Position numbers and translations under genes: made by a program. The notes under the pieces are model-generated. The model saw nothing but the letters and a program-made list of their open reading frames with translations, had not been told where the DNA came from and searched no databases. Positions 3,001 to 55,936 of a stretch of 64,000 bases of DNA are shown here, piece after piece (position 1 is the stretch's first letter; each line of letters opens with the position of its first letter). The stretch is from a virus (lineage: Duplodnaviria; Caudoviricetes): IMG/VR virus record IMGVR_UViG_3300010149_000008. The stretch is one strand, 5' to 3'.

Positions 3001-3429
3001 GATTCTAAAAAAATTATTAATAATAAAGGAAAATACGAATTGCCTCAAAGCGTACAAGACTTAGAGTACACAGGTAAAAATACAGTTCTTGTTACACCTG
3101 ATAAAAATTATTTTTTAGATGATTTTGACACAGTATTAGCAGCTAAAAAAGGCGGATTTTTAAATAACTTGTTTATTGGATTAACAGACTACTTCGGTCA
3201 GTCAAAAGAAATTAGTGAAATAAAAATTATAGGTTTAAAAAAAGAGCTAAACAAAGCTGAAGCTTCTGTAAACAAACTTTCAGACAATATTTTAGATAGA
3301 AAAAGTTTGGACTACGAAGCAGACGAAGAAGATTTTGTTAAATTGTTTGATTTATATGACAATATAATAAGTATAATTACAAATAAAGAAAACAAACCAG
3401 TAAAGACAAAAGTAGCATTTGACGTATAA
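1..3429 (+). CDS. Tape-measure-like tail protein, paralog 1 (5' end probably outside the window)
   Basis: Long helical Ala/Ser/Lys-rich ORF whose frame is open from base 1. Clear blocks of similarity to the next gene (GNQIRTDLVE, FKKFTTFEEAA..QTFEMNIDAFD). Lies upstream of baseplate genes. Confidence 0.7.
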   Translation, partial: SLLTSYGGLSAKSSDQTQIASQAVENMASQSKKIDQAASKSQSMSNELNEVANTKSVIDNITSNSKKVSTDISQSMETAAKSVDKSKIDISKSSMQSKKSNEDILKTGDLLNATGDIHKNLDKTSKEILEIKDTVKGQSTLLKVWTKIVSMLVKVKDALFTGGLSLFKDIPMMLINFAKSALNIFTSLIGSLTKFLAFTTTLPFTIAKIAVGIGNQIRTDLVETIQGAGEEAKESFDLTSAIGKNADKMTQTAKGLLKTFQNPKSRLVKLFGLGASGAATFLKETFKAVDDMGHYAEIFGPSILGSTENGQFVIEMQRAMGIGSKEMAYYALEAYNAGEHPIDTLTRTSEVIKAVADRNDQDFKALTKDFHALRTNISEFGHLSSNEIADLTGKLRSMKVKTEDAVNVFKKFTTFEEAAKTSAMLFQTFEMNIDAFDLLNSRDPGEMLQQFRDAMFQSGKAFKDLNRHEKSLMASITGVSEQGLSSLMNYMNLGLTQDEARKKLEAQDPTKEQEKMIKGLTSTIKLVQKTMTFSNPFQAFFAGLSDNAMNQKELQKKLISLSTIYSKIRDMGASLNLSSVSAALNPIIKVLKNFDETVNGDGFKKVMAITVGTASRFLTHFSHDIETDPNKLKTINKMSVEERVNELYRDLSSMTSSGGSLFQNMVTVGGKIMGGIIKGAIYGITAAFHLLAGGTDKAVTSLGLTMTDQMKEDAAKKGIPVKEYTILNWLGISENDADGISNSLGTAVGDFVTKLPSLMSMASSVLEDLSEVLLQFAGSLLGILGSMTSEYYDSSNRFTQAGLRAMGFDIEAARYAKDGVGSGESLNMDMSELISKTHVKGELKEGYIGTYISYIEDLQKSFPQGSPAHNFLNSPKTSQNINYIKNTGNFKFDTLGSIIDDAEEPQRAQAILDIAKNAYKVNSYMPYEVFNLFKGVENKPKWYDKDANFANKKSKELSNALIKGPDIDGHYSSDENLVFSSANNVIKSQGLAINTLQRLIDSKKIINNKGKYELPQSVQDLEYTGKNTVLVTPDKNYFLDDFDTVLAAKKGGFLNNLFIGLTDYFGQSKEISEIKIIGLKKELNKAEASVNKLSDNILDRKSLDYEADEEDFVKLFDLYDNIISIITNKENKPVKTKVAFDV

Positions 3430-3443
3430 AACAAGGATAAAAA

Positions 3444-7304: not shown

Positions 7305-7319
7305 AAGTGAGAATGTATT

Positions 7320-7577
7320 ATGAATAAATTAGATGTAAAAGAAGTGATTACAAAACTTGGACTTGACAAGGCACTATGCAAAGCATTTGCTAAAAAGACT
7401 GGAAAGACCGAGGAAGAATATTTAAAAATGTTTAACGAAATTGCAGAAAAAGAACTTAATGCTATTGGAAAATCACTAGTTGAAGGTCAAATAGATGAAA
7501 CTAAGTTCTCTCGATTACGAGGTTTGTCTCTGCAAGATTTTATGAAAGATAATGATAATATTATCAAGGACAAATAA
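7320..7577 (+). CDS. Hypothetical protein (tail module)
   Basis: 85-aa ORF tightly packed between tail genes. No recognisable motif. Confidence 0.6.
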   Translation: MNKLDVKEVITKLGLDKALCKAFAKKTGKTEEEYLKMFNEIAEKELNAIGKSLVEGQIDETKFSRLRGLSLQDFMKDNDNIIKDK

Positions 7578-7579
7578 AA

Positions 7580-10423: not shown

Positions 10424-10425
10424 CT

Positions 10426-10728
10426 ATGTCAAAATTTATAAGTAGGAAAGGTGGCATACCAAATCTTTCGTCTGCTATTTACTATGCTGTTGAAAATGGT
10501 ACAATAAGATTTAATACAGTTGTAGCAGATGGTAGAAGACTTGATCACTATGCTCAAGAATTTTATGGTAATGGTTTAAACTGGTGGATTATTGCAGCTG
10601 CAAGTGGAATTAGATGGCCTCTTGGAATTGGAGCAGGAGTAGCAAACAAAGGATCCATAGGAGACGACAGTATAGTGTTGTTTATACCGAACATAGAAGA
10701 CGTAATAAAACTCAAAGCAGGTAGATAA
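10426..10728 (+). CDS. LysM-like baseplate wedge protein (P2 gpX / T4 gp53-like)
   Basis: RLDHYAQEFYGNGLNWWIIAAASGI matches the RLD.lA..yYG....WW.Ia.aN pattern. It sits directly before the hub gene. Confidence 0.7.
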   Translation: MSKFISRKGGIPNLSSAIYYAVENGTIRFNTVVADGRRLDHYAQEFYGNGLNWWIIAAASGIRWPLGIGAGVANKGSIGDDSIVLFIPNIEDVIKLKAGR

Positions 10729-13700
10729 TGTCTTACGTAAATTATTTAAGAGAATCAAATATAAGCAAGTATACAAATATTATGTCCAATGAAGATGTAA
10801 TAAAAGAATTACTTAAACAATCTTCAGACGAAACATCAAAACTTGCAGCTGAAAAGCCTGAAGTTATAAAAGCAATTTCAGATGTATTTCAATCAATAAC
10901 GACAGAAGCTAAAACTGTTAATGAAATGATTGAAGATGTATACTTGAATTATTGCAAAGTTGTTCCTGGCGATGCAGAAGCAGAAGCAAAAGCAAAAGCA
11001 GAAGAAGTCTTAACAGAATTATCTTCATTTATAACAATAATACACGATGATGCAGAAAACAAGTTTTCTACTAGCACAGAAAATGTTTATACTTTTGATA
11101 ATAGAATAGATATAGGTGATCCTACAACTAAGCCTACTTTGTCTCCTAAAAAACTTAAAGATGTATTTAAGTTCCAAACTCCTTTTGTGTCTTTTAAGAG
11201 TCGTCCAAAACAAAATAAAATAGCAGGTGGAACTACAAAGTATGAACACTATAACAAATACGGATTACTTAACGCTGGCGCTGCAGAAGTTGGTACTATT
11301 TTTACAGCAGGAGGAGTAGCGTCTAGAACAATAAATTCTTCTTTTAAGAACATTTATAATACACATGAAATCTGTCACGCAAAAGCTGATGAAGCAACAG
11401 CTTCATCAAGAGGCGTTGAGGACGCAAGTCAGCTTAATTTAGTTAATGCAACTGGAAGTGGCTCTATACGTAATATTTGTGCAGCTACAAAAGATAAGCC
11501 TAGTCTTGCTTACATACTGATTGATCATCCAGACTTGCGTATAGGAACAAGAAATAGTTTAGAACTATCTACTTTTTTTAACTTATTAAATACAGTAGAA
11601 CTTAGCAAATGCCAACCTTATTTAGACGCTGTATTTGTATTGCCTTCAAATATATCATCAAATAATAATGGTAGAGTTTTTAAAACAGCTTCAATAACAC
11701 AGTTTTTTGAAGGAACGCCTGTATCGCCAAATGTTACAACTGATAATTTTAAAAAAATTGAAGCAAATTTTAAAAGAAAAGTAGGATCTGGTAAAACTGC
11801 AAAAATACAAGATGCTGTTGATACAAACATGTCAGCTTTTACAATGCCACAAACTATAAACAATTTTAACGAAAAGTTTATCGGGCATGGAGAAAACGTA
11901 CAGTTTAACACGGATATGAATTTTGCTAGACAAAACGCAGTTCATGATATCACGAGGCCTTTTTTAACTATAAAGAGTTTTAACATAGATGTTGCTCCAA
12001 CTCAAGGTCTCATGTCTTTTAAGACAGGAAAGCTTTCTTTAGTGCTTCATGATAGAACTCGCATGGTCGATATTGCTCCTTTCATCAAGCCTGATCTTTT
12101 TGGTTCATTTGGCGCTGAAATTTCTATTGAATATGGATGGAGTCATATCGACGGCAAGGTAGAAAATCCTGATGATAAAAAAGCTAGTTACTTAGGGCAA
12201 TTTTTAGAAAAATCTAGAGTAACAGAAAAATACATTATTACAAACTCTTCTTTTACAATGGATGCAACAGGACAAGTTAATATAGAGCTTTCAATAGCAA
12301 TGAGAGGGCCAGTTGACATAAGAAGTGTAAAGCTTCATTCTAATCCTATGCAAAACATTAAAACAAACTCAGTTTTAAAAAGCGAAAAAACTTTTCAAGA
12401 CATTGTAAGCATATTTAATGATCCTGCTCATAAGTATATTTTAGATAAAACTGATGGATATACGCACACAGATGAAAGTGGAGCCAATCCTCAATATATT
12501 TATTATGGAAAGCAGGTATTTCCTATAATTGAAAATTTAGTAACTGCAATTAGAAGTGAAACAAATCAAGTCCAGCTTGATGATCCTAAGTCTATTAAAG
12601 AAGCAAAATATGAAGTTATTAAATCAATTGCTGCAAATTTAACTAAAAGTGTAAGAACAAAATGGCTTAAAGCAAATACTGTTAAGCAAATAATCGAGGC
12701 TTTTAATCTTCTTGATCCAAAGCCTACACAAGAAGGCAAACTTTATTTAAGCGGAAAGTCGCGGCCTTTACTTTATATTCAAACTCATGAAGCTGATATA
12801 AATAATCTCGTAATTAATGCCTTTAGAAAAGATGAGATAAAAATACTCATGAGTAGCATTTTAAATTATATTGATAATGTCTACAATACATACGTTGTAA
12901 ATCAAGATAGTTTGCAACAAAAAGAAAGCACTTTAATAAACAAGATAATTGGTGGTCTAGATAAAATTGATCCTTTTATTAATACTGAGTTTTTAAAGCA
13001 ATATGAAAGAATAATACTAGGTGATGACACATCATCAGGCATATCTGTTAATAACTTAGGGGAAGAAGGAGAAAACGTAGGCTATGTTAGCTTTGGTTCT
13101 TTTATAACTGGTCTTATTGGTACACATATGGCTGCAGTAGGAAAATTTGATGAAATACAAATTGTAAGCTATACTTGTAATGAAAATTGTGGTCTTTTTT
13201 CAAACATGAACGTTTCTTCAATTTTGCTGCCTAAAGATGAATTAAGAGACTTTTTAGGTGACTTATTTGAAGATGGCACAACTATGACGTTAGAAGGAAT
13301 TATTTCTCAAATAATTAATAGATTTATAAATACTAGAACAAATATTTGTTATGGTCTTGCAGAATTTTATGTTATTGATGAAGAAACTGGGAACGTTGAA
13401 GCAGTTTTTAAAGAAGATGCGCAAAAAAAGAACATTAATGACAAACTAAGTACAATTTACCAAATGCTAGCTAATTCAGGTAAATCTCAACAAAGCCAGC
13501 AAACAACAGAAATTTCAGATGTTAGATTTGTTATGCCAAAAATTAAATTTACATTTGATACGCTTACAAGCAAAGATAGCAGTTTTGAAAAAACAATCTC
13601 TAGAATTTCTATATTTGATCAAAATGATAATCCTTTCGGTTCAGTTAACACTATAATGAAAGACGTTTATGATAGACAAATAGTTGCAACAGCTGCAAAA

Positions 13701-15431
13701 TTAAACAAAATTCGTCGTGATCATAAGTCTACTTATATTGATAAAAAAACAAAAAAAATAAAAAAGAAAACAACAAAAAACGTAGCAAGTGATATGCATG
13801 TTGCTGTTAGAGAAAGATTTTATCAAAAAAGTTGGTCTTTAATAAAAGATTTAATAAATCAAGGTGTCTTAATAGAAATTTCTGAAGGTGTTTATGAAAT
13901 TGGAGGTCAATTTAAATTACAAGGTCTTAAAAATAGCTTTAAATCAATTATGCCTTCTATAACTTACGGAACACAAAATTCTGCTGTAATAGAAGCTTCA
14001 GTTTCTACTGTTAATGAAGCCAAGCTTAATACAGTCTATTTAACAAGATCAGATAGAGCTGTAGATGGGAAAAATAAAATAGCAACAAAAGTAGCTTTCT
14101 CAAAAGACTTACCTCTTAGAGTTTTACCCTCGCAAGCAAACGTAACAATATACGGCTGTCCTTTTGTTAATTTTGCTCAATATATTTTCTTAGACTTTGA
14201 AACAGGAACAACTATTGACAATTCATATGCAATTACAGGCATTAAGCATGATTTATCTCCTGGGAAATTTACAACACAACTAACACTTTCTTACGGTGAT
14301 GTATACGGTAAATACGAAAATTCAGCTCAAACAATTGCAAGAACAATTAATGACATTGTAAAGCCTAAATCAATAGTAAGTGCTGTAGATGATGTGAGTA
14401 CTATTAAGATTAATTCATTTAAGAAAAGAGGAGATAAGCTAGGCAAAAAAGCAGCACTTATAGAAGTTACAAAAACATTTAATGGGAATATTAATTTTAA
14501 CATTAAGATTGTAGCTTCAAGAAGTAACGAAGTAGTCATTAAAAAAACTGGTGTCGTTAGCGATTATGATATGATTATATATGTTAACGAAAATAAACAA
14601 GGCAACCCTGCTGAGCTAGCTGATGGGAAATCTATAGATATATCTTTAGACATGACAAACGGATCTAATGATATTAAATTTTTCCAAGGAACAGCAGCTG
14701 ACTTTGGCATGCATGCTTATGCAAAAGCTAAGAATCTTTTTAAAACCCCGAATAGAATACCTACAGGTGGATTTGGCTTTGATACAAAAAGTCTTGCAAA
14801 CTTTAAGTCAATGGGTGTGAATGTGTTTAACAAAATTAGTGGTGATTTTATTAAAAACAGTTCAGCTGAAAGACTAAAATTTTTGAAAGATGCATTAACT
14901 CAACATGTTGGTTTCTTTTTTAAATTAAAATTTAAGTATAATGGTGTTGGCACTAATATTGAGCCTGATGCTATAAATCCTTCTTTAACAATAGACTGGA
15001 ATTTATTTGACAAAGTAAAAGTAGCTAATTTATTTAAAGCGTATGAAGATGTCAATGAAACAAACAACATTAGTTTAAATCCAGAGTACATTAATAAAGT
15101 ATCTAAAATATTAACTGACAACAACATACAAACAATTGAAGGTAGAAAAGAAAGTGTAAGTTTTTATACTAGCACTATAAAAAACATTAAAAGAAAACAA
15201 AAACTAAGTGCGTATGCAAAGCCTGGAAGTATAATGTTTACAACTGCTGGTTTAGAATTTGAAGTTATTGATGGATTTAAGTTTATTGGAAAAAAGAAAG
15301 TTAAAGTGGGTAAAAAAACAGTCGAAAAGATTGTAGCTGAATTTTCTTATAAAAAAGGCTCAATATCACTTAAGGATTTATTAGACAATATTACAGATCC
15401 TAAGAAACTTTATAATTTAAAGTCTAGATAA
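10728..15431 (+). CDS. Baseplate hub protein (gp27/VgrG/gpD-like) with long extensions
   Basis: C-proximal ANVTIYGCPFVNFAQYIFLDFETGTTIDNSYAITGIKHDLSPGKFTTQLTL is typical of hub/late-control-D proteins. ISIEYGWSH motif in the middle. Canonical TMP-tube initiator-LysM-hub order. Confidence 0.62.
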   Translation: MSYVNYLRESNISKYTNIMSNEDVIKELLKQSSDETSKLAAEKPEVIKAISDVFQSITTEAKTVNEMIEDVYLNYCKVVPGDAEAEAKAKAEEVLTELSSFITIIHDDAENKFSTSTENVYTFDNRIDIGDPTTKPTLSPKKLKDVFKFQTPFVSFKSRPKQNKIAGGTTKYEHYNKYGLLNAGAAEVGTIFTAGGVASRTINSSFKNIYNTHEICHAKADEATASSRGVEDASQLNLVNATGSGSIRNICAATKDKPSLAYILIDHPDLRIGTRNSLELSTFFNLLNTVELSKCQPYLDAVFVLPSNISSNNNGRVFKTASITQFFEGTPVSPNVTTDNFKKIEANFKRKVGSGKTAKIQDAVDTNMSAFTMPQTINNFNEKFIGHGENVQFNTDMNFARQNAVHDITRPFLTIKSFNIDVAPTQGLMSFKTGKLSLVLHDRTRMVDIAPFIKPDLFGSFGAEISIEYGWSHIDGKVENPDDKKASYLGQFLEKSRVTEKYIITNSSFTMDATGQVNIELSIAMRGPVDIRSVKLHSNPMQNIKTNSVLKSEKTFQDIVSIFNDPAHKYILDKTDGYTHTDESGANPQYIYYGKQVFPIIENLVTAIRSETNQVQLDDPKSIKEAKYEVIKSIAANLTKSVRTKWLKANTVKQIIEAFNLLDPKPTQEGKLYLSGKSRPLLYIQTHEADINNLVINAFRKDEIKILMSSILNYIDNVYNTYVVNQDSLQQKESTLINKIIGGLDKIDPFINTEFLKQYERIILGDDTSSGISVNNLGEEGENVGYVSFGSFITGLIGTHMAAVGKFDEIQIVSYTCNENCGLFSNMNVSSILLPKDELRDFLGDLFEDGTTMTLEGIISQIINRFINTRTNICYGLAEFYVIDEETGNVEAVFKEDAQKKNINDKLSTIYQMLANSGKSQQSQQTTEISDVRFVMPKIKFTFDTLTSKDSSFEKTISRISIFDQNDNPFGSVNTIMKDVYDRQIVATAAKLNKIRRDHKSTYIDKKTKKIKKKTTKNVASDMHVAVRERFYQKSWSLIKDLINQGVLIEISEGVYEIGGQFKLQGLKNSFKSIMPSITYGTQNSAVIEASVSTVNEAKLNTVYLTRSDRAVDGKNKIATKVAFSKDLPLRVLPSQANVTIYGCPFVNFAQYIFLDFETGTTIDNSYAITGIKHDLSPGKFTTQLTLSYGDVYGKYENSAQTIARTINDIVKPKSIVSAVDDVSTIKINSFKKRGDKLGKKAALIEVTKTFNGNINFNIKIVASRSNEVVIKKTGVVSDYDMIIYVNENKQGNPAELADGKSIDISLDMTNGSNDIKFFQGTAADFGMHAYAKAKNLFKTPNRIPTGGFGFDTKSLANFKSMGVNVFNKISGDFIKNSSAERLKFLKDALTQHVGFFFKLKFKYNGVGTNIEPDAINPSLTIDWNLFDKVKVANLFKAYEDVNETNNISLNPEYINKVSKILTDNNIQTIEGRKESVSFYTSTIKNIKRKQKLSAYAKPGSIMFTTAGLEFEVIDGFKFIGKKKVKVGKKTVEKIVAEFSYKKGSISLKDLLDNITDPKKLYNLKSR

Positions 15432-20607: not shown

Positions 20608-21984
20608 ATGAGCTTAGAAAAAAACTTTTCAAAATTCGGCAAACCTTTTCAAGAAAAAGTATTTCAAGGAATGCTAACAGACCCCATGTGGTCAGGACAA
20701 ATGGTAGAAGTAGTCAGTCCAGACTATTTTGACTTGAAATATCTTAGCTTCTTATGCGACAAGTATTTTTCTTATTACAAGAAGTATAAAACTTTTCCAA
20801 CACTTACAATTTTAATTACAATTATTAAAGAAGATTTATCAAAATCTAAAGATTCAATACTAAGAGATCAAATAATAGAGTATCTTCATCGTATGAAAAC
20901 AAATCCTGACATTGGTGATCTACAATATGTAAAAGATAAGTCACTAGAGTTTTGCAAGAGACAGGCATTTAAAGAAGCGCTAGAACAAAGTGTTGATCTA
21001 ATTCAAACTGAAAAATATGAGTCTGTTATTAATATAATGAAAGAAGCAATTTCTGTTGGTATGCCTAATACCGCCGGGCACAATTTCTTTGACGATATTG
21101 AAGCACGTTTTGTCCAAATTAATAGGCAAGTTTGTCCAACAGGATTGACTAGAATTGATGCACAAGACATTTTAAGAGGTGGTTTAGGCAGAGGAGAGCT
21201 AGGAGTAATTGCAGCAAATACAGGAGTTGGTAAATCACACTTCTTAGTAGCAATGGGATGTGCTGCAATGTTAGCGGGTAAAAATGTAATCCATTATACA
21301 TTTGAGCTATCAGAGCATGAAACTGGAAAGAGATATGACTCAAATCTTTGTGACATACCTTCAAATGAAGTTATTGAAAGAAAGCGAGAAGTAGTTGGAA
21401 AATATGAAAAAATGGAACTAGGCAAATTAATAATTAAAGAGTATGCTACAGGCTCTGCTTCTGTCATGACTTTAAGAAATCATATAGAAAAATTAACGCT
21501 AAAAGGTTTTAAACCTAGCTTAGTAACAGTTGACTATGCTGATGTTATGAAAAGTTCTAGAGCTTATGACTCTTTAAGACATGAATTAAAACTTATATAT
21601 ACAGAATTAAGAAATCTTGCTGTAGAGCTTAACATACCGATATGGACAGCTTCACAAGCAAACAAAGATTCTTCAAAGTCTGATATTGTTGGTCTAGAAA
21701 ACTTAGGAGAGTCATATGGTAAGGCACAAGTAGCTGATGTTGTGTTGTCCATAAGCAGAAAGCCTATGGAAAAAAGCGAAGGTACTGGTAGAATATTTGT
21801 AGCAAAAAACAGAGCGGGAAGAGATGGTCTTCTATTCCCTATAAATATTGACACAGCAAAGTCTAAGTTTAAAATTTTGGATGAAAGTGAACTGACGCTT
21901 AATGAAGCTGTTACTCAAGACAATAGTGACATGAAAAACAAATTAAGAGAAAAGTGGAAAGAGGTAAACAAAAAAGATGATTAG
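20608..21984 (+). CDS. dnaB: DnaB-like replicative helicase (gp41-like)
   Basis: GGLGRGELGVIAANTGVGKS Walker A, VDYAD, IWTASQ, KNRAGRDG. Confidence 0.92.
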   Translation: MSLEKNFSKFGKPFQEKVFQGMLTDPMWSGQMVEVVSPDYFDLKYLSFLCDKYFSYYKKYKTFPTLTILITIIKEDLSKSKDSILRDQIIEYLHRMKTNPDIGDLQYVKDKSLEFCKRQAFKEALEQSVDLIQTEKYESVINIMKEAISVGMPNTAGHNFFDDIEARFVQINRQVCPTGLTRIDAQDILRGGLGRGELGVIAANTGVGKSHFLVAMGCAAMLAGKNVIHYTFELSEHETGKRYDSNLCDIPSNEVIERKREVVGKYEKMELGKLIIKEYATGSASVMTLRNHIEKLTLKGFKPSLVTVDYADVMKSSRAYDSLRHELKLIYTELRNLAVELNIPIWTASQANKDSSKSDIVGLENLGESYGKAQVADVVLSISRKPMEKSEGTGRIFVAKNRAGRDGLLFPINIDTAKSKFKILDESELTLNEAVTQDNSDMKNKLREKWKEVNKKDD

Positions 21985-22489
21985 TATTTTTCTTAGTGAC
22001 GAGTTAAAAGATGTTTTAAAAGAAAACAACATTAGTGTACATAATTATATTCCTGCATATAATGGTGAAAGTGCAGGTCTAGATTTGTTTAATTGTAATA
22101 AAGATATTTCGTTAATACCTACGCAGTATAAAAATGTTACAAATGAAAAACACTACACACAGCATAAATTTAAGACGTTAATATCAACAGGTTTAAGATT
22201 GATTGTTCCTAAGGGATATGTTGCACTAGTTCAAGAACGCGGTTCTATTACAAAAACTCCTCTTAAGGTTAGAGCAGGCGTTATAGATAGCGGTTATACA
22301 GGCGAAATATTTGTTAATTGTATTAACATTGGTTCGAAACCTTTTAACTTAAAAAAAGGGCAGAAGTTACCTTTTCAAATTGTAGTAGTTAAATGTGACA
22401 ACAATTTTAGAGTAATAGATGAAAAAGAATATTTAACATTATCATCAGCTTCTCAAAGAAAAGAAGGAATGGTGGGAAGTTCAGACTAA
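21977..22489 (+). CDS. dut: Trimeric dUTPase
   Basis: AGLDL, ERGS, GVIDSGYTGEI and the C-terminal R..G.vGSS motif. Confidence 0.88.
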   Translation: MISIFLSDELKDVLKENNISVHNYIPAYNGESAGLDLFNCNKDISLIPTQYKNVTNEKHYTQHKFKTLISTGLRLIVPKGYVALVQERGSITKTPLKVRAGVIDSGYTGEIFVNCINIGSKPFNLKKGQKLPFQIVVVKCDNNFRVIDEKEYLTLSSASQRKEGMVGSSD

Positions 22490-27098: not shown

Positions 27099-27815
27099 AT
27101 GGAAAAATTACGTTATTTATACAATGATAAAATTGGCAGTGTAGAATTAGTTCAACATATGGGAGAAGATATAACTGTAGTTAATTCTGCGAGAGTATCA
27201 TTTGGTGTACAAAAACAAAAAATAGACGAAAAAGATAAAAAGCTAATTAGCTATCTTATTAAGCATAGACACACTTCTACTCTCGAGCATAATATTGCAA
27301 CTTTTAGAATTAAAGTTCCTTTGTTTGTTAGGTCTCAACATCATAGACACAGAACGTGGAGTTATAACGAAATATCTAGAAGATATACAGACGCTGATAT
27401 ACAGTTTTATGAGCCTTTGAGCTTTAGAACTCAACACAAAAGTAATAGACAAGCTTCAAATGCAGAAGATACAATCAACCCAGAAATAGAAATTAAAAGT
27501 GACATATGCTCAAAACCTTTAATTAAACTAGCTTCTAAAGCTATTGTTGATCATCATGACAGCTGTATAAAGCTTTTTGATAACTTACTTGCAGCAGGTG
27601 TCTGTAGAGAGCAGGCAAGAGGAATATTACCTCAAAACTTATACACAGAATATTATGCAACTGCAAATCTAAACAATATTTTAAAATTTATTGACTTAAG
27701 AACACACGAAGGTGCACAATGGGAAATACAACAGGTTGCATTGGCAATGTTAGATATTATAAAAGATCTGTGGCCAGAAACAGTAAATGCTTATAGAGAA
27801 ACTAGAGGCGTGTAA
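27099..27815 (+). CDS. thyX: Flavin-dependent thymidylate synthase (canonical)
   Basis: HTSTLEH, RHRTWSYNEISRRY signature, REQARGILP, LR..EGAQWEI. Confidence 0.95.
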   Translation: MEKLRYLYNDKIGSVELVQHMGEDITVVNSARVSFGVQKQKIDEKDKKLISYLIKHRHTSTLEHNIATFRIKVPLFVRSQHHRHRTWSYNEISRRYTDADIQFYEPLSFRTQHKSNRQASNAEDTINPEIEIKSDICSKPLIKLASKAIVDHHDSCIKLFDNLLAAGVCREQARGILPQNLYTEYYATANLNNILKFIDLRTHEGAQWEIQQVALAMLDIIKDLWPETVNAYRETRGV

Positions 27816-28261: not shown

Positions 28262-28483
28262 ATGGAAAATAAAGATTTTAAATTAGATGACAATGTTATT
28301 GCACACATTGCAAGAATTTTACAGGTTTCAATGCTTACTGGAACTGATATTATTGATCATATGAGAATGATTAGATTTACTTGTAAAGATGAAAAGTTAG
28401 TATTGCAAGATGAGTACGCAAAAATTTTTGATGGATCTTTAGACAACATGCTTAAAAATGCGCAAGAAAAGAAAGATGACTAA
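28262..28483 (+). CDS. Hypothetical protein
   Basis: 73-aa ORF with RBS AGGA, translationally coupled to the next gene. Confidence 0.65.
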   Translation: MENKDFKLDDNVIAHIARILQVSMLTGTDIIDHMRMIRFTCKDEKLVLQDEYAKIFDGSLDNMLKNAQEKKDD

Positions 28484-28860
28484 TGAACAAAGACAAATTG
28501 TTTGATATTTTTGAAAAGCGTGAAAGTTTTATGCATTTAATTAAGCAAAAATTTGAAGACTCTTACCCACAGTGGCCAGTTGATTTATCAACAAAAAAAG
28601 CACAGCATACATGTAGAGAGACAGCGCTTAAAGGTGTTGAAGAAATGTTTGAAGCACTTGGTCATCTAAAAAACTGGAAGCCTCATCGCGAAACAGAAAT
28701 GCCTGAAATTGATAGAGAAGAGTTCTTAGAAGAAATTGTAGACGCTTTTAATTATTTTTTCTCTCTAATGATTTTAATCGGAGTTGACGTTGAAGAATTC
28801 TATACAGCTTTTTTAAGCAAGGATGAGATCATAAGAAATAGAATTATTCAAGGATACTAG
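28483..28860 (+). CDS. All-alpha NTP pyrophosphatase (dimeric dUTPase / MazG / T4 gp56 dCTPase-like)
   Basis: EEMFEAL..LKNWKPHR....IDREEFLEEIVDAFNYF carries both acidic metal-binding helices of the superfamily. Confidence 0.8.
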   Translation: MNKDKLFDIFEKRESFMHLIKQKFEDSYPQWPVDLSTKKAQHTCRETALKGVEEMFEALGHLKNWKPHRETEMPEIDREEFLEEIVDAFNYFFSLMILIGVDVEEFYTAFLSKDEIIRNRIIQGY

Positions 28861-29534: not shown

Positions 29535-29880
29535 AACTAGGCGAAGCGATTTAGCTTATGAGGCAAAAGATCTTTTACAAAAAGCTTCACGTGTTCCTAC
29601 AAAATGGTTAGATATTTTTAATGCTATAGAAATGTTTAGAAAAAAAGTACAAGCAGGAAGAGATTCATACGACTCTACAGCTAACGATTCGCAAGTAGGT
29701 CTAATGTCACCAATGCTTGTCATGTTTGCTTTAATGCTTGAGACTAACATGTTAATGGAACCATTAGACACAAACATAATAATAAACATACTTTCAGATA
29801 ATTTCCGTGAAGAAAGGCACATTGAAACGCTTAAAGAGCTACTGCGTACACTTCACCCAGAAAAAAAAGAGTTTAAATGA
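29506..29880 (+). CDS. Hypothetical protein
   Basis: 124-aa ORF with RBS GAGG, overlapping its neighbours. Confidence 0.55.
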   Translation: MNMKSENNNKTRRSDLAYEAKDLLQKASRVPTKWLDIFNAIEMFRKKVQAGRDSYDSTANDSQVGLMSPMLVMFALMLETNMLMEPLDTNIIINILSDNFREERHIETLKELLRTLHPEKKEFK

Positions 29881-30803
29881 AAAATAATTTAACTATTAAA
29901 AGCTTACTAAAGCTTCAAGACAATTTTTCTTCTACATTTTATGATAAAAAAACAATGTCAGCAAAACAAAAAGAAGAAATGTTAAAAACAATTACATTAG
30001 CAATGCATCATGAAGTATCAGAAATTGTTTCTTCTTCTAACTTTAAAGTTTTTGATAAAACTGACTATGAAGTAGATAAAGATAAGATTTTATATAATTC
30101 TATAGATGTGTTTAGATATCTAATGGCAATAATGAATCTTTATGAAATATCTAGCGAAGAATTTATTTCTTCATTTGACGAGAGAGATATTCATTTAAAA
30201 GTAAGCAAGAACATTAAAAGCCCAGAAACATCTCAAAAGGTTATTGTTGTTGACATAGATGACGTTGTTTGTGACTTTCGTAACTATTTTAATAATTGGT
30301 TGTATAAGACTTACGGTGTTTACGTAGATCAAAATAATACTTCTTACTATTCTTCAAAAGAAGTAAAAAATAAAGGTTTGAGTCCTGAAGGTGTTTTTGA
30401 AAATTTCATTTCATGTAATGAATTTCTTAACATTCCACCAATAGATAGCATGGTAAAATTTCTAAGGTTGGCAAAAGAAGAAAATATATACATTCAGCTC
30501 CTTACTTCTAGACCAAGCAGCAATTTAAAATGTAAATATCAAACTTATGCTTGGCTAGAAAATAACAATATACCTTTTGACAATTTAGACTTTGCGGCAG
30601 AAAAATATATTTGGGTTGCAAAACGTGACTTTTATTTAAACGGGAATTTAATGTGTGCTATAGATGACAGTCCTAAACATGCAATGGAGTACGCAACTCA
30701 CGACATTAAAGTCTTTGTACCAAAAATGCCATACAATGATCAAATAAGTCATGAAAACATACATCACTACGTTCTTGAAGACTTAGAAAAATTTAAATTT
30801 TAA
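29877..30803 (+). CDS. Fusion of an all-alpha NTP-PPase-like domain and a HAD 5'(3')-deoxyribonucleotidase
   Basis: The N-terminus aligns by eye to 28483..28860. The C-terminus has HAD motifs VDIDDV, LLTSRP, K and IDDSP. Confidence 0.75.
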   Translation: MKNNLTIKSLLKLQDNFSSTFYDKKTMSAKQKEEMLKTITLAMHHEVSEIVSSSNFKVFDKTDYEVDKDKILYNSIDVFRYLMAIMNLYEISSEEFISSFDERDIHLKVSKNIKSPETSQKVIVVDIDDVVCDFRNYFNNWLYKTYGVYVDQNNTSYYSSKEVKNKGLSPEGVFENFISCNEFLNIPPIDSMVKFLRLAKEENIYIQLLTSRPSSNLKCKYQTYAWLENNNIPFDNLDFAAEKYIWVAKRDFYLNGNLMCAIDDSPKHAMEYATHDIKVFVPKMPYNDQISHENIHHYVLEDLEKFKF

Positions 30804-30808
30804 TTACG

Positions 30809-30836
30809 TGTAAATATTGTCAACACGTATTATAAT
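30809..30836 (+). promoter_or_regulatory. Putative phage promoter TGTAAA-N16-TATAAT with an overlapping 7-bp inverted repeat
   Basis: Exact motif. TACGTGT at 30805-30811 and ACACGTA at 30823-30829. Confidence 0.7.
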
Positions 30837-30895
30837 ATTAAAGTAATAAGAAAAAATACTTTATATGATATTAAAAACAAATCACGGAGAAATAT

Positions 30896-31882
30896 ATGCC
30901 TGTTAACAACAATCTTGAACCAGTAGCACTTCCTATGCAGCTTAAGTTTGGACAAGATCCAGTTACAAATTACATTAACAATCTAGAATCACTAAAAGTA
31001 GAAGTAATTGATGCGCCTACAAGAGAACAAGCACAAAATATTGCTTGGCACATGACAAAAGCAACATGGGCAGATTCACCTTCTGAAACTGATTTTAAGA
31101 ACTCAACACCCGAAGAGGCTTCTACAAATCTTCAAGATGTACTTAATTTTCGTGCACTTCCTACTCCAATGGAGTGTTTAGGATTTACATTTAAGATTAG
31201 TGGTATTGATGTACAAACTGTTACACATCTTATTCGTCATAGAGCAGGATCTTTTGCAGCACAATGTACAGGTGACAGAGACTTGAGACACGATAATGCA
31301 CTAGTTCCTGAGTCAATTGAAAACTGCAGAAAAGATGATGATGACTTTTATTTTAGGTATTTAGATATTGTCAAGGAAGCAAAACTACTATACTCTGAAA
31401 TGGTTGATAGCAAAAAAGTTTCAATGATGGACGCAAGAGTAATACTTCCTAAGTGCATGGAGACTTTTTATATTGCAAGATTTAATCTTAAAGACTTGAT
31501 CGGTTTTATTAAACAACGTCAAGACGTTCAAATCCAACCTGAGGTTGATAATATTTTAGCAACGCGCATCGCACGTGCTGTTTGTGAAGCAATTCCAGAA
31601 GTATCAACTTGTCTAGACTTTAACAAGCCTGATATGCACTACGTAAGAACTTTTAGAGTTAAATTGCCAGATGGAACTTACACTTCTCGTGGAACAAATC
31701 TATATCAGCCAGAACCTAAAAATGATTTATTTGATTATAATGAAAATGATTCAATATACCAGTGCAAAAGAGAAGACTTAAATGGTAATAAGTCAGGTGA
31801 AGAAAAAGTATTTACACGAATGTGGAATGACGATGTAAAAGCTGTAAGTTTAATTAAACAAAAACTTAATAGCGAATTTTAG
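30896..31882 (+). CDS. Divergent ThyX-like flavoprotein
   Basis: FTFKISGID...HLIRHRAGSFAAQCTGDR, DARVILP and FIKQR..Q.Q.E retain the ThyX scaffold, but the signature is altered. C-terminal extension of about 90 aa. Confidence 0.8.
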   Translation: MPVNNNLEPVALPMQLKFGQDPVTNYINNLESLKVEVIDAPTREQAQNIAWHMTKATWADSPSETDFKNSTPEEASTNLQDVLNFRALPTPMECLGFTFKISGIDVQTVTHLIRHRAGSFAAQCTGDRDLRHDNALVPESIENCRKDDDDFYFRYLDIVKEAKLLYSEMVDSKKVSMMDARVILPKCMETFYIARFNLKDLIGFIKQRQDVQIQPEVDNILATRIARAVCEAIPEVSTCLDFNKPDMHYVRTFRVKLPDGTYTSRGTNLYQPEPKNDLFDYNENDSIYQCKREDLNGNKSGEEKVFTRMWNDDVKAVSLIKQKLNSEF

Positions 31883-31961: not shown

Positions 31962-32411
31962 ATGAAAAAGATTTATCTTGCTAGCGGTTGGTTTAATACT
32001 AAACAAGCTGATGAGCTTACTGAGCTCGAGCGTATTTTTGATGAAAGAAAAGAACATTTTAATCTAGCATCGCCTAGAAGGATCTTTGTTTGTCCACCAG
32101 ACGCGCCAAAAGAAGTTCAAAACGAAACTTTTGAAGGTAATTTACATCACATAAAAACAGCAGACTTTTTGCTTGTTAACACAAGAGACAAAGACATTGG
32201 AACAATTTGGGAAGCTGGATATGCATATGCATATGACAAGCCAATTATTTATTTTTGCGCAGGATTACCAGAAGGAGCAAAATTTAATTTAATGCTAGCT
32301 AGAAGTGGTATTAAAGTTTGCACGTCTTTTGATGAATTAGAAGACTATCTGGATAGAACAATTAAAATACGTTCATTTATAAATGAGCCATACTCAGCTT
32401 CAATCGAGTAA
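31962..32411 (+). CDS. Nucleoside 2-deoxyribosyltransferase-family nucleotide N-glycosidase (DNPH1/MilB-like)
   Basis: IYLASGWF, SP, ADFLL, DIGTIWEAGYAYAYDKPII (catalytic Glu). Confidence 0.85.
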   Translation: MKKIYLASGWFNTKQADELTELERIFDERKEHFNLASPRRIFVCPPDAPKEVQNETFEGNLHHIKTADFLLVNTRDKDIGTIWEAGYAYAYDKPIIYFCAGLPEGAKFNLMLARSGIKVCTSFDELEDYLDRTIKIRSFINEPYSASIE

Positions 32412-33413: not shown

Positions 33414-34403
33414 ATGAGAATAGCAATTACTGGAGAAAAAGGATTTATTGCAAGAAATCTTGCAGTTGAAATTAGTAAAAACAATCATGAATTTATTTCT
33501 TTAGACAACTCGTCTTATGCAAATGAGTTTATGAACTATACAAAGTCTGAAGAAGTTTGTGTACATAGTAATACTGTTGATAAGTGGGTTGAATTATTTG
33601 ATGAGTTAGAGTTAGATGTTATAGTTCACAACGCTGCTGTAGTTGGAACTGATGTTGTAGCTCTTAATCCTAAAGATGCTGTACTGACAAATGTGTTAGG
33701 CACTAAAATAATTACAGAGGCAGCAAACATTTCAGGTCAAACAATAGTATATACTGGCACAACAGTAATTTATGATACTTTTGAGTATCAAGACAAAGAG
33801 TTGTCTGAAGAAAGTAAAGTTTTTCCTAGGACTGATTATGCAATACAAAAGTATGCTGGAGAAATGATTGTACGAAACAATGCAAAAGAGTGGCTAGTTA
33901 CTAGGCCTTTGTTTGCTTACGGTGGTGAAGGTGATATGAACTCACTTATAGCAAAATCTTTGTTTGCTATTAAAAACAACATAAAAAACGTTGACATGTT
34001 TCTTAATCCTGAAAAGATTAAAGATTATATGCACGTAGAAGACTTTTGTTATAGCGTAATACAGCTTATTAATTCAAAAATTAGAAATATGGATTTTAAT
34101 ATTACAGCAGCAAACCCACACTCAACGCTAGAGATTGTTAATATGATTGAAGAAGTAACAGGAAAAAGCTTAACTGATTATATTAAGTGGCATCCGGAAA
34201 CTGACTATCTTGGAAATCATAGGTTAAGTAACAACAAGTTTCAAGAATTTATGGGATTTACAAAGACTAGACTTTTAAAAAGTGGTATTAGTCAATCATG
34301 GGAATCAATTCAAAATTCAGAAAGTAATTATAATCCTCTTAAACATCTAAAGCAAGCAAAAGAAGAAAGTGTTGACTTAAAAGAATTTTTTCCTATGTTT
34401 TAA
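33414..34403 (+). CDS. NAD-dependent nucleotide-sugar epimerase/dehydratase (extended SDR)
   Basis: ITGEKGFIA Rossmann loop, HNAA, T in YTGTT, YAIQK (YxxxK), RP..AYG, KDYMHVEDF. Confidence 0.88.
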   Translation: MRIAITGEKGFIARNLAVEISKNNHEFISLDNSSYANEFMNYTKSEEVCVHSNTVDKWVELFDELELDVIVHNAAVVGTDVVALNPKDAVLTNVLGTKIITEAANISGQTIVYTGTTVIYDTFEYQDKELSEESKVFPRTDYAIQKYAGEMIVRNNAKEWLVTRPLFAYGGEGDMNSLIAKSLFAIKNNIKNVDMFLNPEKIKDYMHVEDFCYSVIQLINSKIRNMDFNITAANPHSTLEIVNMIEEVTGKSLTDYIKWHPETDYLGNHRLSNNKFQEFMGFTKTRLLKSGISQSWESIQNSESNYNPLKHLKQAKEESVDLKEFFPMF

Positions 34404-43161: not shown

Positions 43162-44055
43162 ATGAGATTTTTAAATATTAATATAGAAGGTCCTGATTGT
43201 AGTGGTAAGACTACACTTTTTAATAGAATTCATAAAGAAACAAGCTTTAAGTACAACATACAAGACAGAAGCTGTATGTCAATGTATGTTTATGCAAAAT
43301 TGTATGAAAGAGATAACGCTTCTTTTTGGTTTGATAAAGTTCTTGAAGACATTAAACGATTAGATACATTATATATTGTTCTTTTACCTTCAAACCATAC
43401 TGTGTTAGAAAGACTAAGAAAAAGAGGTGATGAGTTTCAAGATGAAGAAAGCATTATGGATGTCAAACGTTTATTTTACAACTTAGTTAAATGCGGATTT
43501 GGTAACTTTCCAAATGTTTTAGTGCTAGAAGACATTGAAGATTTAACGCAGAAAGTTGATATGTGTTTAAGCTTTATTGAAAGTTTAAATGAATTTCCTA
43601 GTGGCGACTTAATAAAGTCTATTGTTATTAATAGCGGCAGAAACGAATTAGTTGACGTACAATGCAAGGAAGTAGTTGACATTAGCTCTTTAGACTACAC
43701 AGCATTAAATTTTCCTGAAGAAAAATCGTATTATGAAAAAATTACTACAGATATTGAAAATAAGATCTTTAAAGAATTTGCAGGTTTAAATTCACATAAT
43801 ACACCACAAAAACATGACAGTAGAAGATTTGTTTATACTGATGCAAGTTGTATATCGCTTATTCATGCTTTGTTTCGAAAGAACAGACTAAACGTTTCAG
43901 TGACACTTAGATCTTCAAATGTAATTAAAACACTCTGGGCAGATTATGAATTTTTAAAGATAATTAGTGTAAAATTAGCAGAACTTATGCAACTTGACGA
44001 AAGCATACCAGTCGATTTGACTATTAATATAAGGTCTGCACATATTGTACCTTAA
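43162..44055 (+). CDS. dNMP kinase fused to a minimal thymidylate-synthase-fold domain
   Basis: N-terminus IEGPDCSGKTT and QDRS (TMPK family). C-terminus SRR, C230-X19-R250-S, D261 and SAH294, with spacing that matches TS catalytic residues. Confidence 0.78.
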   Translation: MRFLNINIEGPDCSGKTTLFNRIHKETSFKYNIQDRSCMSMYVYAKLYERDNASFWFDKVLEDIKRLDTLYIVLLPSNHTVLERLRKRGDEFQDEESIMDVKRLFYNLVKCGFGNFPNVLVLEDIEDLTQKVDMCLSFIESLNEFPSGDLIKSIVINSGRNELVDVQCKEVVDISSLDYTALNFPEEKSYYEKITTDIENKIFKEFAGLNSHNTPQKHDSRRFVYTDASCISLIHALFRKNRLNVSVTLRSSNVIKTLWADYEFLKIISVKLAELMQLDESIPVDLTINIRSAHIVP

Positions 44056-44064
44056 GGAAATTAA

Positions 44065-44634
44065 ATGAATCCGTTTTTTAAAATATATACGGGTCCAATG
44101 TTTGGATCAAAAACAACAAGGCTAGTAGCAGAAATCGATCGTTCTTCTTATAAAGACAGAAAAATTTTTGCTTTTAAAGCAAAGAAAGATAAAAGATACG
44201 ACGCTGAATCTATATCTACACATAGTGGTGTTACATGGCCTGCAATTTGTATCAATGATGCACTAGAAATATTTGACTATTTAAACGATGATTATAATCT
44301 TTCTAATGTGTTAATTGCTGTAGACGAAGCTTTTATGATTAAAGGAATTGATGAAGCTTTAATTTCTTTATTTTTTAAAGGCGCTAATATTGTAGTTTCT
44401 ACAATTCAATTAGATGCAAACGAAAGACCTTTTGAAAATATAAAAAACATGTTGCCTTTTGCAACGCATATTGAAATTTGTCCGGCAGTTTGTACAAAAT
44501 GCAATAACGATGCTTATTATACAGCAGCAATGTTTGACATAGATAACGCAACAGATGAAGAGCGAGTTGGTTCTAAAGACATGTATGAGCCAAGATGCTC
44601 AAAACATTACAAGGCATTTTTTAAATATGAATAG
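44065..44634 (+). CDS. tdk: Thymidine kinase
   Basis: GPMFGSKTT, VDEAF, CTKC and YEPRCSKHY zinc site. Confidence 0.9.
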   Translation: MNPFFKIYTGPMFGSKTTRLVAEIDRSSYKDRKIFAFKAKKDKRYDAESISTHSGVTWPAICINDALEIFDYLNDDYNLSNVLIAVDEAFMIKGIDEALISLFFKGANIVVSTIQLDANERPFENIKNMLPFATHIEICPAVCTKCNNDAYYTAAMFDIDNATDEERVGSKDMYEPRCSKHYKAFFKYE

Positions 44635-45985: not shown

Positions 45986-46411
45986 ATGGAAAATATAGCT
46001 CGTCCCTCTTGGGACAAAATATGGATGACAATGGCAGAAACTATTGCACAAAGAAGTCATCATTCTACTTTCAAGGTAGGCGCTATTATAGTAACGTCAG
46101 ATAATACACAAGTGCTTTCTTTGGGGTATAATGGTAATGCTGCAGGATTATCAAACGTACCTCAATCTGAAGAACCTGGCTGTAGTGGTTTATTACATGC
46201 TGAAATTAATGCTTTACTTAAGCTGGATTATAATAACCCAAAAGATAAAGTTATGTATTTGACGTTAAGCCCTTGCACAAACTGCGCGATCGCTGTTATT
46301 AATAGTGGAATAAAAAAAGTAGTCTATAAAACAAAGTATAGAGACGATACAGGCATTAACATGTTAACATCTGCAGGTGTGTTAGTAGAGCAATTTAATT
46401 TAAACAAATAA
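45986..46411 (+). CDS. dCMP deaminase
   Basis: RPSWD..WM..A..IA.RS, VGA.IV, GYNG, HAEINA, SPCTNC. Confidence 0.9.
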   Translation: MENIARPSWDKIWMTMAETIAQRSHHSTFKVGAIIVTSDNTQVLSLGYNGNAAGLSNVPQSEEPGCSGLLHAEINALLKLDYNNPKDKVMYLTLSPCTNCAIAVINSGIKKVVYKTKYRDDTGINMLTSAGVLVEQFNLNK

Positions 46412-55198: not shown

Positions 55199-55936
55199 AT
55201 GCATATAAATAATTTAATTAAAAAAGCGATCGCTGAAACATTAGAAGAAAAAGGATTATCAACCAATGCTAGTCAAGAAAGATTAACAGAGAACAATCTT
55301 GTTTCATCTGGAGTTATGTCTGAGGCTTATGTCGCTGAAGCTGGAAAGTTTAATTTAAAAACAGAACTTTTATCAGATAAAACTAAGAAAGCACATCAAG
55401 AACTTTTAGAAGGATACGTTGAAAATCTTAACAAAGTTTCTGCAAAGTTAGACGGAGTAGACAAATCTTCAGCTAATTTAAACCACTCTGACTTTCGAAA
55501 CTTAAAGGTAGACGAAACTTACAATCATAATGCTGCATTTTTACATGGCATGTATTTTGAAAACATAAGTGACTTAAATAGTCAGATTACAGTTGATTCA
55601 TTGACTTATATGAAGTTAGCAAGAGACTTTGGCACGTTTGATAAGTGGCAAGAAGATTTTGTTGCTTGTTGTCTTTCAGCAAGAAATGGTTGGGCTGTTA
55701 CTTTTTATAATCCAAATCTTAAAAGATATATGAATACTGTTATTGACTTACATAGCCAAAACGTAATGATTAGCATGCTTCCAGTTGTTGTAATGGATTG
55801 TTGGGAACATAGTTATTATAGAGATTATCTTAAAGACAGAAAAACATATGTCTATGGAATGATGAAAGAGATAGATTGGTCTATTGTTGAGAATAGAGTT
55901 AAATTATCTGAAAAAATTGCGAAAGTGTTAGGTTAA
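55199..55936 (+). CDS. sod: Fe/Mn superoxide dismutase with an N-terminal extension
   Basis: H in KAHQELLEGYVENLN, H in AAFLHGMYF, signature DCWEHSYYRDY, FGTFDKWQEDF...GWA. Confidence 0.85.
   Translation: MHINNLIKKAIAETLEEKGLSTNASQERLTENNLVSSGVMSEAYVAEAGKFNLKTELLSDKTKKAHQELLEGYVENLNKVSAKLDGVDKSSANLNHSDFRNLKVDETYNHNAAFLHGMYFENISDLNSQITVDSLTYMKLARDFGTFDKWQEDFVACCLSARNGWAVTFYNPNLKRYMNTVIDLHSQNVMISMLPVVVMDCWEHSYYRDYLKDRKTYVYGMMKEIDWSIVENRVKLSEKIAKVLG

Follow-up and report, generated by a model that had tools for sequence, protein, structure and literature searches.

A 64,000-nucleotide stretch of DNA from a marine jumbo phage (IMG/VR record IMGVR_UViG_3300010149_000008, Duplodnaviria; Caudoviricetes; hereafter the window) encodes, next to an ordinary flavin-dependent thymidylate synthase (ThyX), a second ThyX-like protein with an altered active site. 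This protein, the product of the open reading frame (ORF) at 30896-31882 (+ strand) and given the working name X2, is very probably a selected, non-housekeeping and neofunctionalised enzyme. Neofunctionalisation is supported because X2 is under purifying selection, belongs to a separate clade, falls short of the ThyX equivalog model, is retained together with a thymidylate synthase and recurs in the same gene context. An earlier note on this DNA had proposed a neofunctionalised enzyme acting on another nucleotide or carrying out other C5 chemistry; its first part is upheld by these observations, while the other substrate and the C5 chemistry are points that we infer. Our best reading, to which we give an even chance, is that X2 uses flavin to modify C5 of a pyrimidine deoxynucleoside monophosphate (dNMP), with deoxycytidine monophosphate (dCMP) as the leading candidate, for pre-replicative modification of DNA bases.

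X2 is predicted with high confidence to be a ThyX-fold protein. Its 328 amino acid sequence matches the Thy1 family PF02511 with an E-value of 1.9e-20 and 73.9 bits, against a gathering cut-off of 24.8, which indicates Thy1 membership at the level of the fold. The protein consists of an N-terminal extension (residues 1-44), the Thy1 core as delimited by Pfam (45-235) and a C-terminal extension of 93 amino acids (236-328). In an AlphaFold2 model with an overall predicted local distance difference test (pLDDT) value of 96.1, both extensions are folded with values above 90, in agreement with the C-terminal extension described in the earlier note. The top 50 PDB matches returned by Foldseek for this model are all ThyX or PolB, with an E-value of 2e-11 and a template modeling (TM) score of about 0.75 by target for ThyX structures and an E-value of 3.8e-10 for PolB. 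AlphaFold DB clusters cover approximately residues 33-236.

The active-site peptide of X2 departs from that of canonical ThyX. The signature of X2 reads RHRAGSFAAQCTGDR, compared with RHRTWSYNEISRRY in the canonical copy encoded at 27099-27815. Its RHRAGS motif begins at residue 114, the cysteine is residue 124 and the recognition peptide runs A122-Q-C124-T-G126-D127-R-D129. Relative to Thermotoga maritima ThyX, Ser88 is replaced by Cys124, Glu86 by Ala122, Arg90 by Gly126, Tyr91 by Asp127, Gln75 by His111 and His53 by Leu88. X2 has RHR at residues 114-116 with Cys124 in place of the serine of the equivalog signature RHR-x7-S, and the ThyX peptide Glu-x-Ser-x-Arg-Tyr is absent. Arg78, His79 and Arg80 are retained as R114, H115 and R116, Arg147 as R181 within the sequence DARVILP, and Arg174 as R208. 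E93, T90 and N197 align with T. maritima E58, T55 and N163, residues that contact the flavin in that enzyme; His53 stacks on the folate/NADPH site in T. maritima folate complexes. The two alignments from which these equivalences were taken, one made with HMMER against T. maritima ThyX and the other with MAFFT and 71 canonical ThyX sequences, agree and show no insertions or deletions in the critical peptide; both the altered motif and the retention of RHR, DARxILP and the late arginine, as previously described, are confirmed. The closest PDB sequence match of X2 is 3g4c, the one T. maritima entry with a cysteine at the Ser88 position.

The roles of the replaced residues can be read from PolB. 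In PolB structures with 5-Br-dUMP, Arg98' (T. maritima Arg90) forms hydrogen bonds to O4 of the pyrimidine and to the phosphate, Tyr99 stacks on the uracil and its replacement in Y99A almost abolishes activity, Glu94' holds O3', Ser96' touches the phosphate and Arg193 (T. maritima Arg174) binds O2 (PMC5003785). X2 would thus keep the contacts that are common to uracil and cytosine nucleotides, namely those to the phosphate and O2 (R181 and R208), and lose the uracil-specific O4 donor. Asp127, located beside the lost O4-binding arginine, may parallel the Asn-to-Asp switch that turns ThyA-fold enzymes from deoxyuridine monophosphate (dUMP) to dCMP (PMC13326640). A post-replicative enzyme acting on DNA or RNA was also considered and judged unlikely, given the retained arginines for a mononucleotide 5'-phosphate and the lack of basic character in the extensions.

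The altered motif is characteristic of a large clade. A search of 5.8 billion proteins identified 1068 clusters (90% identity) at E ≤1e-5, the best 120 of which are 77-89% identical to X2, and an exhaustive search of 50%-identity representatives identified 130 clusters at E ≤1e-10. The homologue clusters stem mostly from marine metagenomes, including many Tara samples. In a maximum-likelihood tree, 99 clade rows lie on one side of a branch and 71 canonical ThyX rows on the other, with a Shimodaira-Hasegawa-like approximate likelihood ratio test (SH-aLRT) support of 96.7; the altered-motif group, whose conservation had earlier been named as a matter for phylogeny, is a conserved monophyletic clade. 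The clade consensus is C-[ST]-G-D-x-D-x-R-H. Across 92 representatives, the cofactor and phosphate positions are occupied by arginine in 100% (Arg78), 95% (Arg80), 98% (Arg147) and 99% (Arg174) of sequences. The Ser88 position holds Cys (71%), Ser (13%), Gly (8%) or Thr (5%), with Ala also occurring, the Arg90 position is Gly in 72%, the Tyr91 position is Asp in 74% and Glu in 8%, the Glu86 position is Ala or Gln and the His53 position is Leu in 88%. With the equivalog model TIGR02170 (cut-off 87.9), X2 scores 54.6 bits and the canonical window copy 173.2 bits, and all 11 clade members tested, ten besides X2, fall below the cut-off at 29-59 bits.

X2 is under strong purifying selection, tighter than that on the canonical copy. 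The median ratio of nonsynonymous to synonymous substitution rates (dN/dS) is 0.148 across 78 orthologues from IMG/VR loci, compared in those phages with 0.198 for canonical ThyX, 0.16 for the nucleoside 2-deoxyribosyltransferase (NDT) and 0.05 for NrdB; dS is near saturation and the ratios are, if anything, overestimates. The SFAAQCTGDRD stretch is at least 98% conserved in the same orthologues. The difference in motif is far beyond chance because it is conserved to this degree in 78 relatives and defines the whole clade. Relaxed selection on a decaying duplicate, the outcome named earlier as speaking against neofunctionalisation, is rejected on the basis of dN/dS and motif conservation.

Two further observations were made in the course of these searches. 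One X2-clade protein, P0149 (515 amino acids), carries a C-terminal HNH/His-Me homing-endonuclease region. Another ThyX-like variant group, which belongs neither to canonical ThyX (S-x-R-Y) nor to the X2 clade, has the peptide S-Q-L-S-Q-Q-Y-H with a glutamine at the position of the O4-binding arginine and is present in Mycobacterium, Nostoc, Acidobacteria and alphaproteobacteria (contigs L116, L124, L126, L131, L133, L134, L142, L145, L147, L149, L155, L157, L162-L164, L166, L167, L170 and L171).

X2 is found alongside ordinary thymidylate synthases. The window, with a GC content of 31% and almost all genes on one strand, belongs to an IMG/VR viral contig of 115.5 kb that is approximately 46% complete. 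The canonical ThyX of the window (27099-27815, +) is an ordinary synthase of deoxythymidine monophosphate (dTMP) as judged by PF02511 (E 1.9e-48), the TIGR02170 score given above and PDB ThyX entries (E 1e-41). The window also encodes a trimeric dUTPase (21977-22489, +; PF00692, E 1e-12), a thymidine kinase for ordinary deoxythymidine triphosphate (dTTP) supply (44065-44634, +; PF00265, E 1.2e-29) and a dCMP deaminase that would direct deoxycytidine (dC) into the deoxyuridine (dU) and thymidine (dT) pool (45986-46411, +; PF00383, E 2.6e-23), and the phage encodes DnaB, a UvsX-like recombinase, NrdAB and a DnaE-type polymerase. Related loci, found with X2 as the single protein query, lie on contigs of up to about 240 kb, and one of these, G004, is a complete genome of 239,550 bp with terminal repeats. 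X2 and canonical ThyX occur together in four of five large relatives including G004, even 70-80 kb apart, and ThyA was not found in any of the five. Isolated phages gave no match in a megablast search with 16 kb of window sequence. Full-length clade members are also present on six cellular contigs from metagenome-assembled genomes (Patescibacteria, a Sphingobacterium and a gammaproteobacterium), and all five cellular carrier genomes searched also contain ThyA or a canonical or tandem ThyX. X2 is thus not the only thymidylate synthase-like gene of its genome, Geobacillus phage GR1 (OK896991.1, complete, 79 kb) being the exception: a 44.6%-identical X2 homologue is its sole thymidylate synthase-like gene, and neither ThyA nor canonical ThyX is present in the GR1 genome.

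GR1 speaks for the possibility that X2, despite its divergence, is a true flavin-dependent dTMP synthase, a second isozyme with for example another reductant or a different oxygen tolerance and with a motif that is normal for a phage-rich subfamily. The Thy1 fold and the flavin and phosphate arginines of X2 fit such an enzyme, databases label the clade "thymidylate synthase (FAD)", where FAD is flavin adenine dinucleotide, and the combination of dUTPase_2-like, ThyX-like, Tmk-like and uracil-DNA glycosylase (UDG) genes seen at some loci would suit a set for dTTP synthesis and uracil exclusion. X2 however has none of the residues that bind O4 (Arg), stack on the uracil (Tyr) and hold O3' (Glu), and His53 is missing too; every member tested lies below the equivalog cut-off and in a separate clade, ThyA or canonical ThyX accompanies it in five of five cellular genomes and four of five jumbo relatives, and X2 is more constrained than the canonical copy. 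We therefore regard a second dTMP synthase as improbable.

The genes around X2 point to nucleotide metabolism. A MazG-like all-alpha nucleoside triphosphate pyrophosphohydrolase (28483-28860, +; phrog_12184, E 4.6e-16, with a weak dUTPase_2 match) is a candidate for the step from deoxynucleoside triphosphate (dNTP) to dNMP. Directly upstream of X2 lies a fusion of a degenerate MazG-like domain with an HAD (NT5C-type) 5'-deoxynucleotidase (29877-30803, +; PF08761, E 1.2e-6; PF06941, E 1.9e-6). A PDB sequence search with these two proteins gave a mitochondrial deoxyribonucleotidase as best match (E 0.07) and no clue to specificity. Directly downstream of X2 is a member of the NDT family (31962-32411, +; PF05014, E 8e-13), which the earlier note had described as an N-glycosidase; its best PDB match is 6evs, a true N-deoxyribosyltransferase (E 2.3e-11), compared with an E-value of 0.29 for DNPH1, and a deoxyribosyltransferase is more likely on this sequence evidence. 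An extended short-chain dehydrogenase/reductase (SDR) resembling NDP-sugar (nucleoside diphosphate-sugar) epimerases and dehydratases (33414-34403, +; PF01370, E 3.5e-27) completes the conserved block. In 80 related loci, NDT follows X2 in 78 and the SDR in 65, while the MazG-like gene precedes it in 68 and the MazG-HAD fusion in 48.

Similar partners recur in lineages with DnaE, PolB or PolA polymerases, namely MazG-like proteins, Tmk-like kinases, a miniature ThyA-fold protein (mini-ThyA) and NDT or UDG. In the unrelated phage contig L089, where PolA adjoins, the gene immediately before the X2 homologue, whose start it overlaps, is a homologue of the MazG-HAD fusion (E 4e-10). MazG-like homologues lie beside X2 relatives in L005, L006, L008 and L094-L098, and NDT genes near X2 homologues in GR1, L005 and L006. 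The GR1 block comprises NDT, an HD phosphohydrolase, a glycosyltransferase, a P-loop kinase, a nitroreductase, the X2 homologue and a 151 amino acid gene product. L006 has the order MazG-like, NDT, HD, X2 homologue, kinase and S-adenosylmethionine-dependent methyltransferase with DnaE adjoining, and L005 the order MazG-like, NDT, Tmk-like kinase and a glycosyltransferase-like::X2 fusion with PolB nearby. A five-gene cassette of a 460 amino acid protein with a dUTPase_2/MazG-like C-terminal domain, X2, a Tmk-like kinase, a 180 amino acid mini-ThyA and a UDG-family gene is present on large Patescibacteria contigs (L094-L098; positions ~6500-10500 in L094), in L008, where a transposase adjoins, and in the viral contig L187. 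By gene content, MazG-like, X2 and Tmk-like genes therefore occur together, as a T4-like triad, in the window lineage, GR1, L005, L006, L008 and L094-L098. The reading as pre-replicative modification rests on this grouping, since a pyrophosphatase, a modifying enzyme and a dNMP kinase of its own also make up the T4 pathway.

The most informative partners of X2, which the earlier note had not picked up, are the MazG-HAD gene, with its homologues preceding X2 in unrelated phages, and a gene at 43162-44055 (+) whose product is predicted to fuse a small Tmk-like dNMP kinase to a mini-ThyA domain (model pLDDT 92.8). The kinase domain matches 2axp with a Z score of 14.0 and a dTMP kinase with 11.9. 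In Foldseek the mini-ThyA domain matches T4 dCMP hydroxymethylase (E 1.2e-4) and the dCMP hydroxylase of HY126 best, and its VIA Z score to 9iqc is 9.0. A profile of the mini-ThyA family matches T4 dCMP hydroxymethylase with an E-value of 6.6e-8 and places its Cys on Cys148, RS-x-D on RSND and an Asp on Asp179. In the window copy the cysteine is present, the motif reads RSSN, which puts an Asn at the position of Escherichia coli D169, and an Asp occupies the position of N177 (T4 D179). Asn at the D169 position is reported as diagnostic of flavin-dependent 5-hydroxy-dCMP (5hodCMP) synthases and, together with Asp at N177, forms the signatures reported for these enzymes, which bind flavin loosely and need it reduced (PMC13326640). 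Homologues of the 180 amino acid cassette protein are the C-terminal half of the 43162-44055 product and the products of genes downstream of X2 in GR1 and L090. Separate kinase and mini-ThyA genes adjoin X2 homologues in the cassette of candidate phyla radiation (CPR) bacteria, GR1 and L090. In GR1 (L001 8286-10424) the X2 homologue is flanked by a gene for a nitroreductase-type NAD(P)H flavin reductase on its upstream side and by the 151 amino acid mini-ThyA homologue (hmmsearch E 4e-11; annotated as hypothetical) on its downstream side. All lineages in which the mini-ThyA was found also carry X2; it is often the next gene but one, and was not detected beside the X2 homologues in L005, L006 and L089. 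Its Cys and Arg are lost in the nearest relatives G004 and G005, where X2 keeps its Cys, and likewise in L173 and L174; in L095 and L097 the reverse is seen and X2 loses the Cys.

This distribution could indicate a two-component enzyme in which X2 is an NAD(P)H-dependent component that reduces or presents flavin and the mini-ThyA is the oxygenase or C5-activating component, comparable to the 5hodCMP synthases of RB69 and HY126. The confinement of the mini-ThyA to X2-bearing lineages, its frequent position one gene away, both 5hodCMP synthase signatures in the window copy, the structural match to the HY126 enzyme, the need of such synthases for loosely bound reduced flavin (PMC13326640), the complementary loss of Cys from the mini-ThyA in G004/G005 and from X2 in L095/L097 and the missing folate-stacking His of the X2 clade are all consistent with this division of labor. 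A flavin reductase would however require neither the conserved nucleotide-site peptide nor the R147 and R174 equivalents, GR1 has its own nitroreductase-type flavin reductase just upstream, and L005, L006 and L089 have X2 homologues without a detectable mini-ThyA. We consider a two-component system unlikely. A complex prediction for X2 and the mini-ThyA gave a score of 0.00 and was run without controls; it counts neither for nor against binding.

Glycosyltransferases are associated with X2 in two lineages. P0138 (551 amino acids; L005 7726-9381) has a GT-A-like domain, called from three weak concordant leads, N-terminal to its X2-clade domain, and a glycosyltransferase gene lies in the GR1 block. 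The fusion and the neighbor hint at a hydroxyl-bearing product in those two lineages. No homologue of the L005 domain was found in G000, G004, G001 or GR1, and a phmmer search against the PDB was also empty.

A hydroxyl-bearing product could also arise from a uracil nucleotide, with X2 acting on dUMP or UMP to give for example 5-hydroxymethyl-dUMP or 5-hydroxy-dUMP, which would partly replace or decorate thymine. Besides the glycosyltransferases in GR1 and L005, the O2-binding R208 and the phosphate arginines are compatible with such a substrate, and the NT5C-type nucleotidase and NDT would fit the exclusion of dT and dU known from phages with 5-hydroxymethyluracil (hmU). The O4-binding arginine is replaced in X2 and an acidic residue lies beside it, its ThyA-fold partner domain is cytosine-type, and canonical ThyX, thymidine kinase and dCMP deaminase provide the phage with ordinary dTTP; each of these argues against a uracil substrate, which appears to us a slim prospect. 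The cytosine deoxynucleotide reading is preferred because of the cytosine-type ThyA partner, the set of dCMP deaminase, ThyX and thymidine kinase and the U-to-C-like change in the X2 peptide. dCMP as the specific substrate is a tentative assignment that we hold at somewhat less than even, and whether X2 itself is the enzyme that modifies C5 of pyrimidine dNMPs for DNA appears to us evenly balanced.

On the cytosine reading, X2 would bind dCMP, or more generally a cytosine deoxynucleotide, over reduced flavin. Asp127 would read the 4-amino group in the manner of the Asp of ThyA-fold dCMP enzymes, Cys124 would be in a position to help attack on C6 and the enzyme would install a hydroxymethyl, methyl or hydroxyl substituent at C5. 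A pathway can be proposed in which MazG-like pyrophosphatases supply dNMP and drain canonical dNTP, X2 modifies the dNMP, the Tmk-like kinase fused to the cytosine-type mini-ThyA makes the product available to the phage DnaE polymerase by phosphorylation, and the HAD nucleotidase, NDT, dCMP deaminase, canonical ThyX and thymidine kinase recycle unmodified dC into dT. We infer flavin use, substrate, product, the role of Cys124 and incorporation into DNA from the comparisons described here. In the broadest version of this proposal X2 would found an undescribed class of ThyX-fold C5 modifiers of a cytosine deoxynucleotide, in which an acquired Asp reads the base and an acquired Cys activates it, possibly with the mini-ThyA as partner, and the pathway would be common to marine jumbo phages, GR1 and a mobile cassette of Patescibacteria and could yield a new base; we regard this as possible and put it below an even chance.

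Several observations weigh against the modification of dCMP by X2. The Cys124 position is a cysteine in only 71% of the clade and Cys124 can therefore not be an obligatory nucleophile for the clade as a whole. The folate-stacking His53 is replaced by Leu in 88% of the clade, which means that folate-dependent one-carbon transfer is not assured. GR1 carries the X2 homologue as its sole thymidylate synthase-like gene. Neither G000 nor the complete relative G004 gave a GT1 or GT2 glycosyltransferase match; the DNA glycosyltransferases of phages frequently diverge too far for GT1/GT2 models to recognise them. The mini-ThyA with its dCMP-type site could be the real dCMP modifier, with X2 in another role. 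Plain dTTP synthesis by dUTPase, thymidylate synthase and Tmk would call for the same combination of MazG-like, ThyX-like and Tmk-like proteins. Finally, the active-site geometry of X2 was read from alignments and not from coordinates.

The spacer upstream of X2 is 92 bp long and AT-rich (30804-30895). It contains a good Shine-Dalgarno sequence, GGAG (30886-30889, +), 6 nucleotides before the ATG and a single sigma-70-like match of 9/12; 34 such matches are found in the region, compared with 32.6 +/- 5.2 expected by chance, and the promoter of its own with which X2 had been credited is thus not supported. An inverted repeat, ACGTGT...ACACGT (~30807-30829), overlaps a TTGTCA/TATAAT-like stretch in this spacer and could be a phage-specific regulatory site. 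Elsewhere in the window, four very large ORFs of 1141, 1286, 947 and 1567 amino acids occupy positions 4-15431 (+), and a PHROG scan of the 1141, 1286 and 947 amino acid ORFs gave no match. In the product of the ORF at 55199-55936 (+) the C-terminal domain is that of an Fe/Mn superoxide dismutase (E 5e-20), and the ORF at 61250-61612 (+) has a weak pterin-4a-carbinolamine dehydratase-like match (22.1 bits, cut-off 26) that could bear on pterin or folate recycling.

If the proposed function is correct, the ThyX-fold clade would give DNA base modification an independent second scaffold. To our knowledge, all characterised phage enzymes for pyrimidine pre-modification, those for 5-hydroxymethylcytosine (hmC), hmU, 5-methylcytosine (m5C) and the newly found 5-hydroxycytosine, have the ThyA fold, and we know of no neofunctionalised ThyX other than PolB. 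The DNA of abundant ~240-kb marine phages would then probably be non-canonical, with a bearing on the evasion of restriction and CRISPR and on biases in sequencing and metagenome recovery, and the annotation "thymidylate synthase (FAD)" of clade genes would need correcting. A jumbo-phage survey handles ThyX only as an alternative thymidylate synthase, and our literature search found no description of a ThyX-fold enzyme for dCMP, hydroxymethylation or DNA hypermodification, of phage ThyX paralogues or of GR1 DNA. The clade is large, lies within pyrophosphatase/kinase cassettes and is mobile in CPR bacteria as well, and one of its carriers, Geobacillus phage GR1, is in culture, which makes the question directly testable.

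Among known systems, X2 shares with ThyX (Thy1; TM0449, Mycobacterium tuberculosis ThyX) the fold, RHR and the equivalents of Arg147 and Arg174, and it probably binds FAD and stacks the nucleotide on the flavin in the same way; it differs in its score below the equivalog cut-off, six changed positions, extensions of ~44 and 93 amino acids at the N- and C-terminus, its separate clade and the presence of a real thymidylate synthase alongside. PolB (4P5A/4P5B), the polyoxin UMP/dUMP C5-methylase, sets the precedent of a ThyX paralogue working on a non-dUMP substrate; it keeps Glu94, Ser96, Arg98 and Tyr99 and still methylates a uracil nucleotide, whereas all four residues are replaced in X2, and it belongs to an antibiotic gene cluster whereas X2 is found in phage replication modules (PMC5003785).

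The module around X2 resembles cytosine modification in T4 in its pyrophosphatase, dNMP C5 modifier and dNMP kinase next to dCMP deaminase, thymidylate synthase and thymidine kinase, and in the D179-type Asp of its ThyA-fold domain. In T4 the corresponding proteins are the dCTPase gp56, the dCMP hydroxymethylase gp42 and the dNMP kinase gp1, with glucosyltransferases. The X2 module differs in that the predicted core enzyme has the ThyX fold, the ThyA partner is miniature and fused to the kinase, NDT and an HAD nucleotidase are added, and no GT1 or GT2 glycosyltransferase was found in the complete genome G004. The 5-hydroxy-dCMP synthases (RB69 gp48, DLP3 gp80 and HY126; 9iqu/9iqc) share their Asp/Asn signatures with the mini-ThyA of the window, which matches both 9iqc and 9iqu, and offer a precedent for the combination of flavin and a dCMP site on a thymidylate synthase-superfamily scaffold giving rise to new C5 chemistry (PMC13326640). 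These synthases are of the ThyA fold and act alone, whereas X2 is built on the unrelated ThyX fold.

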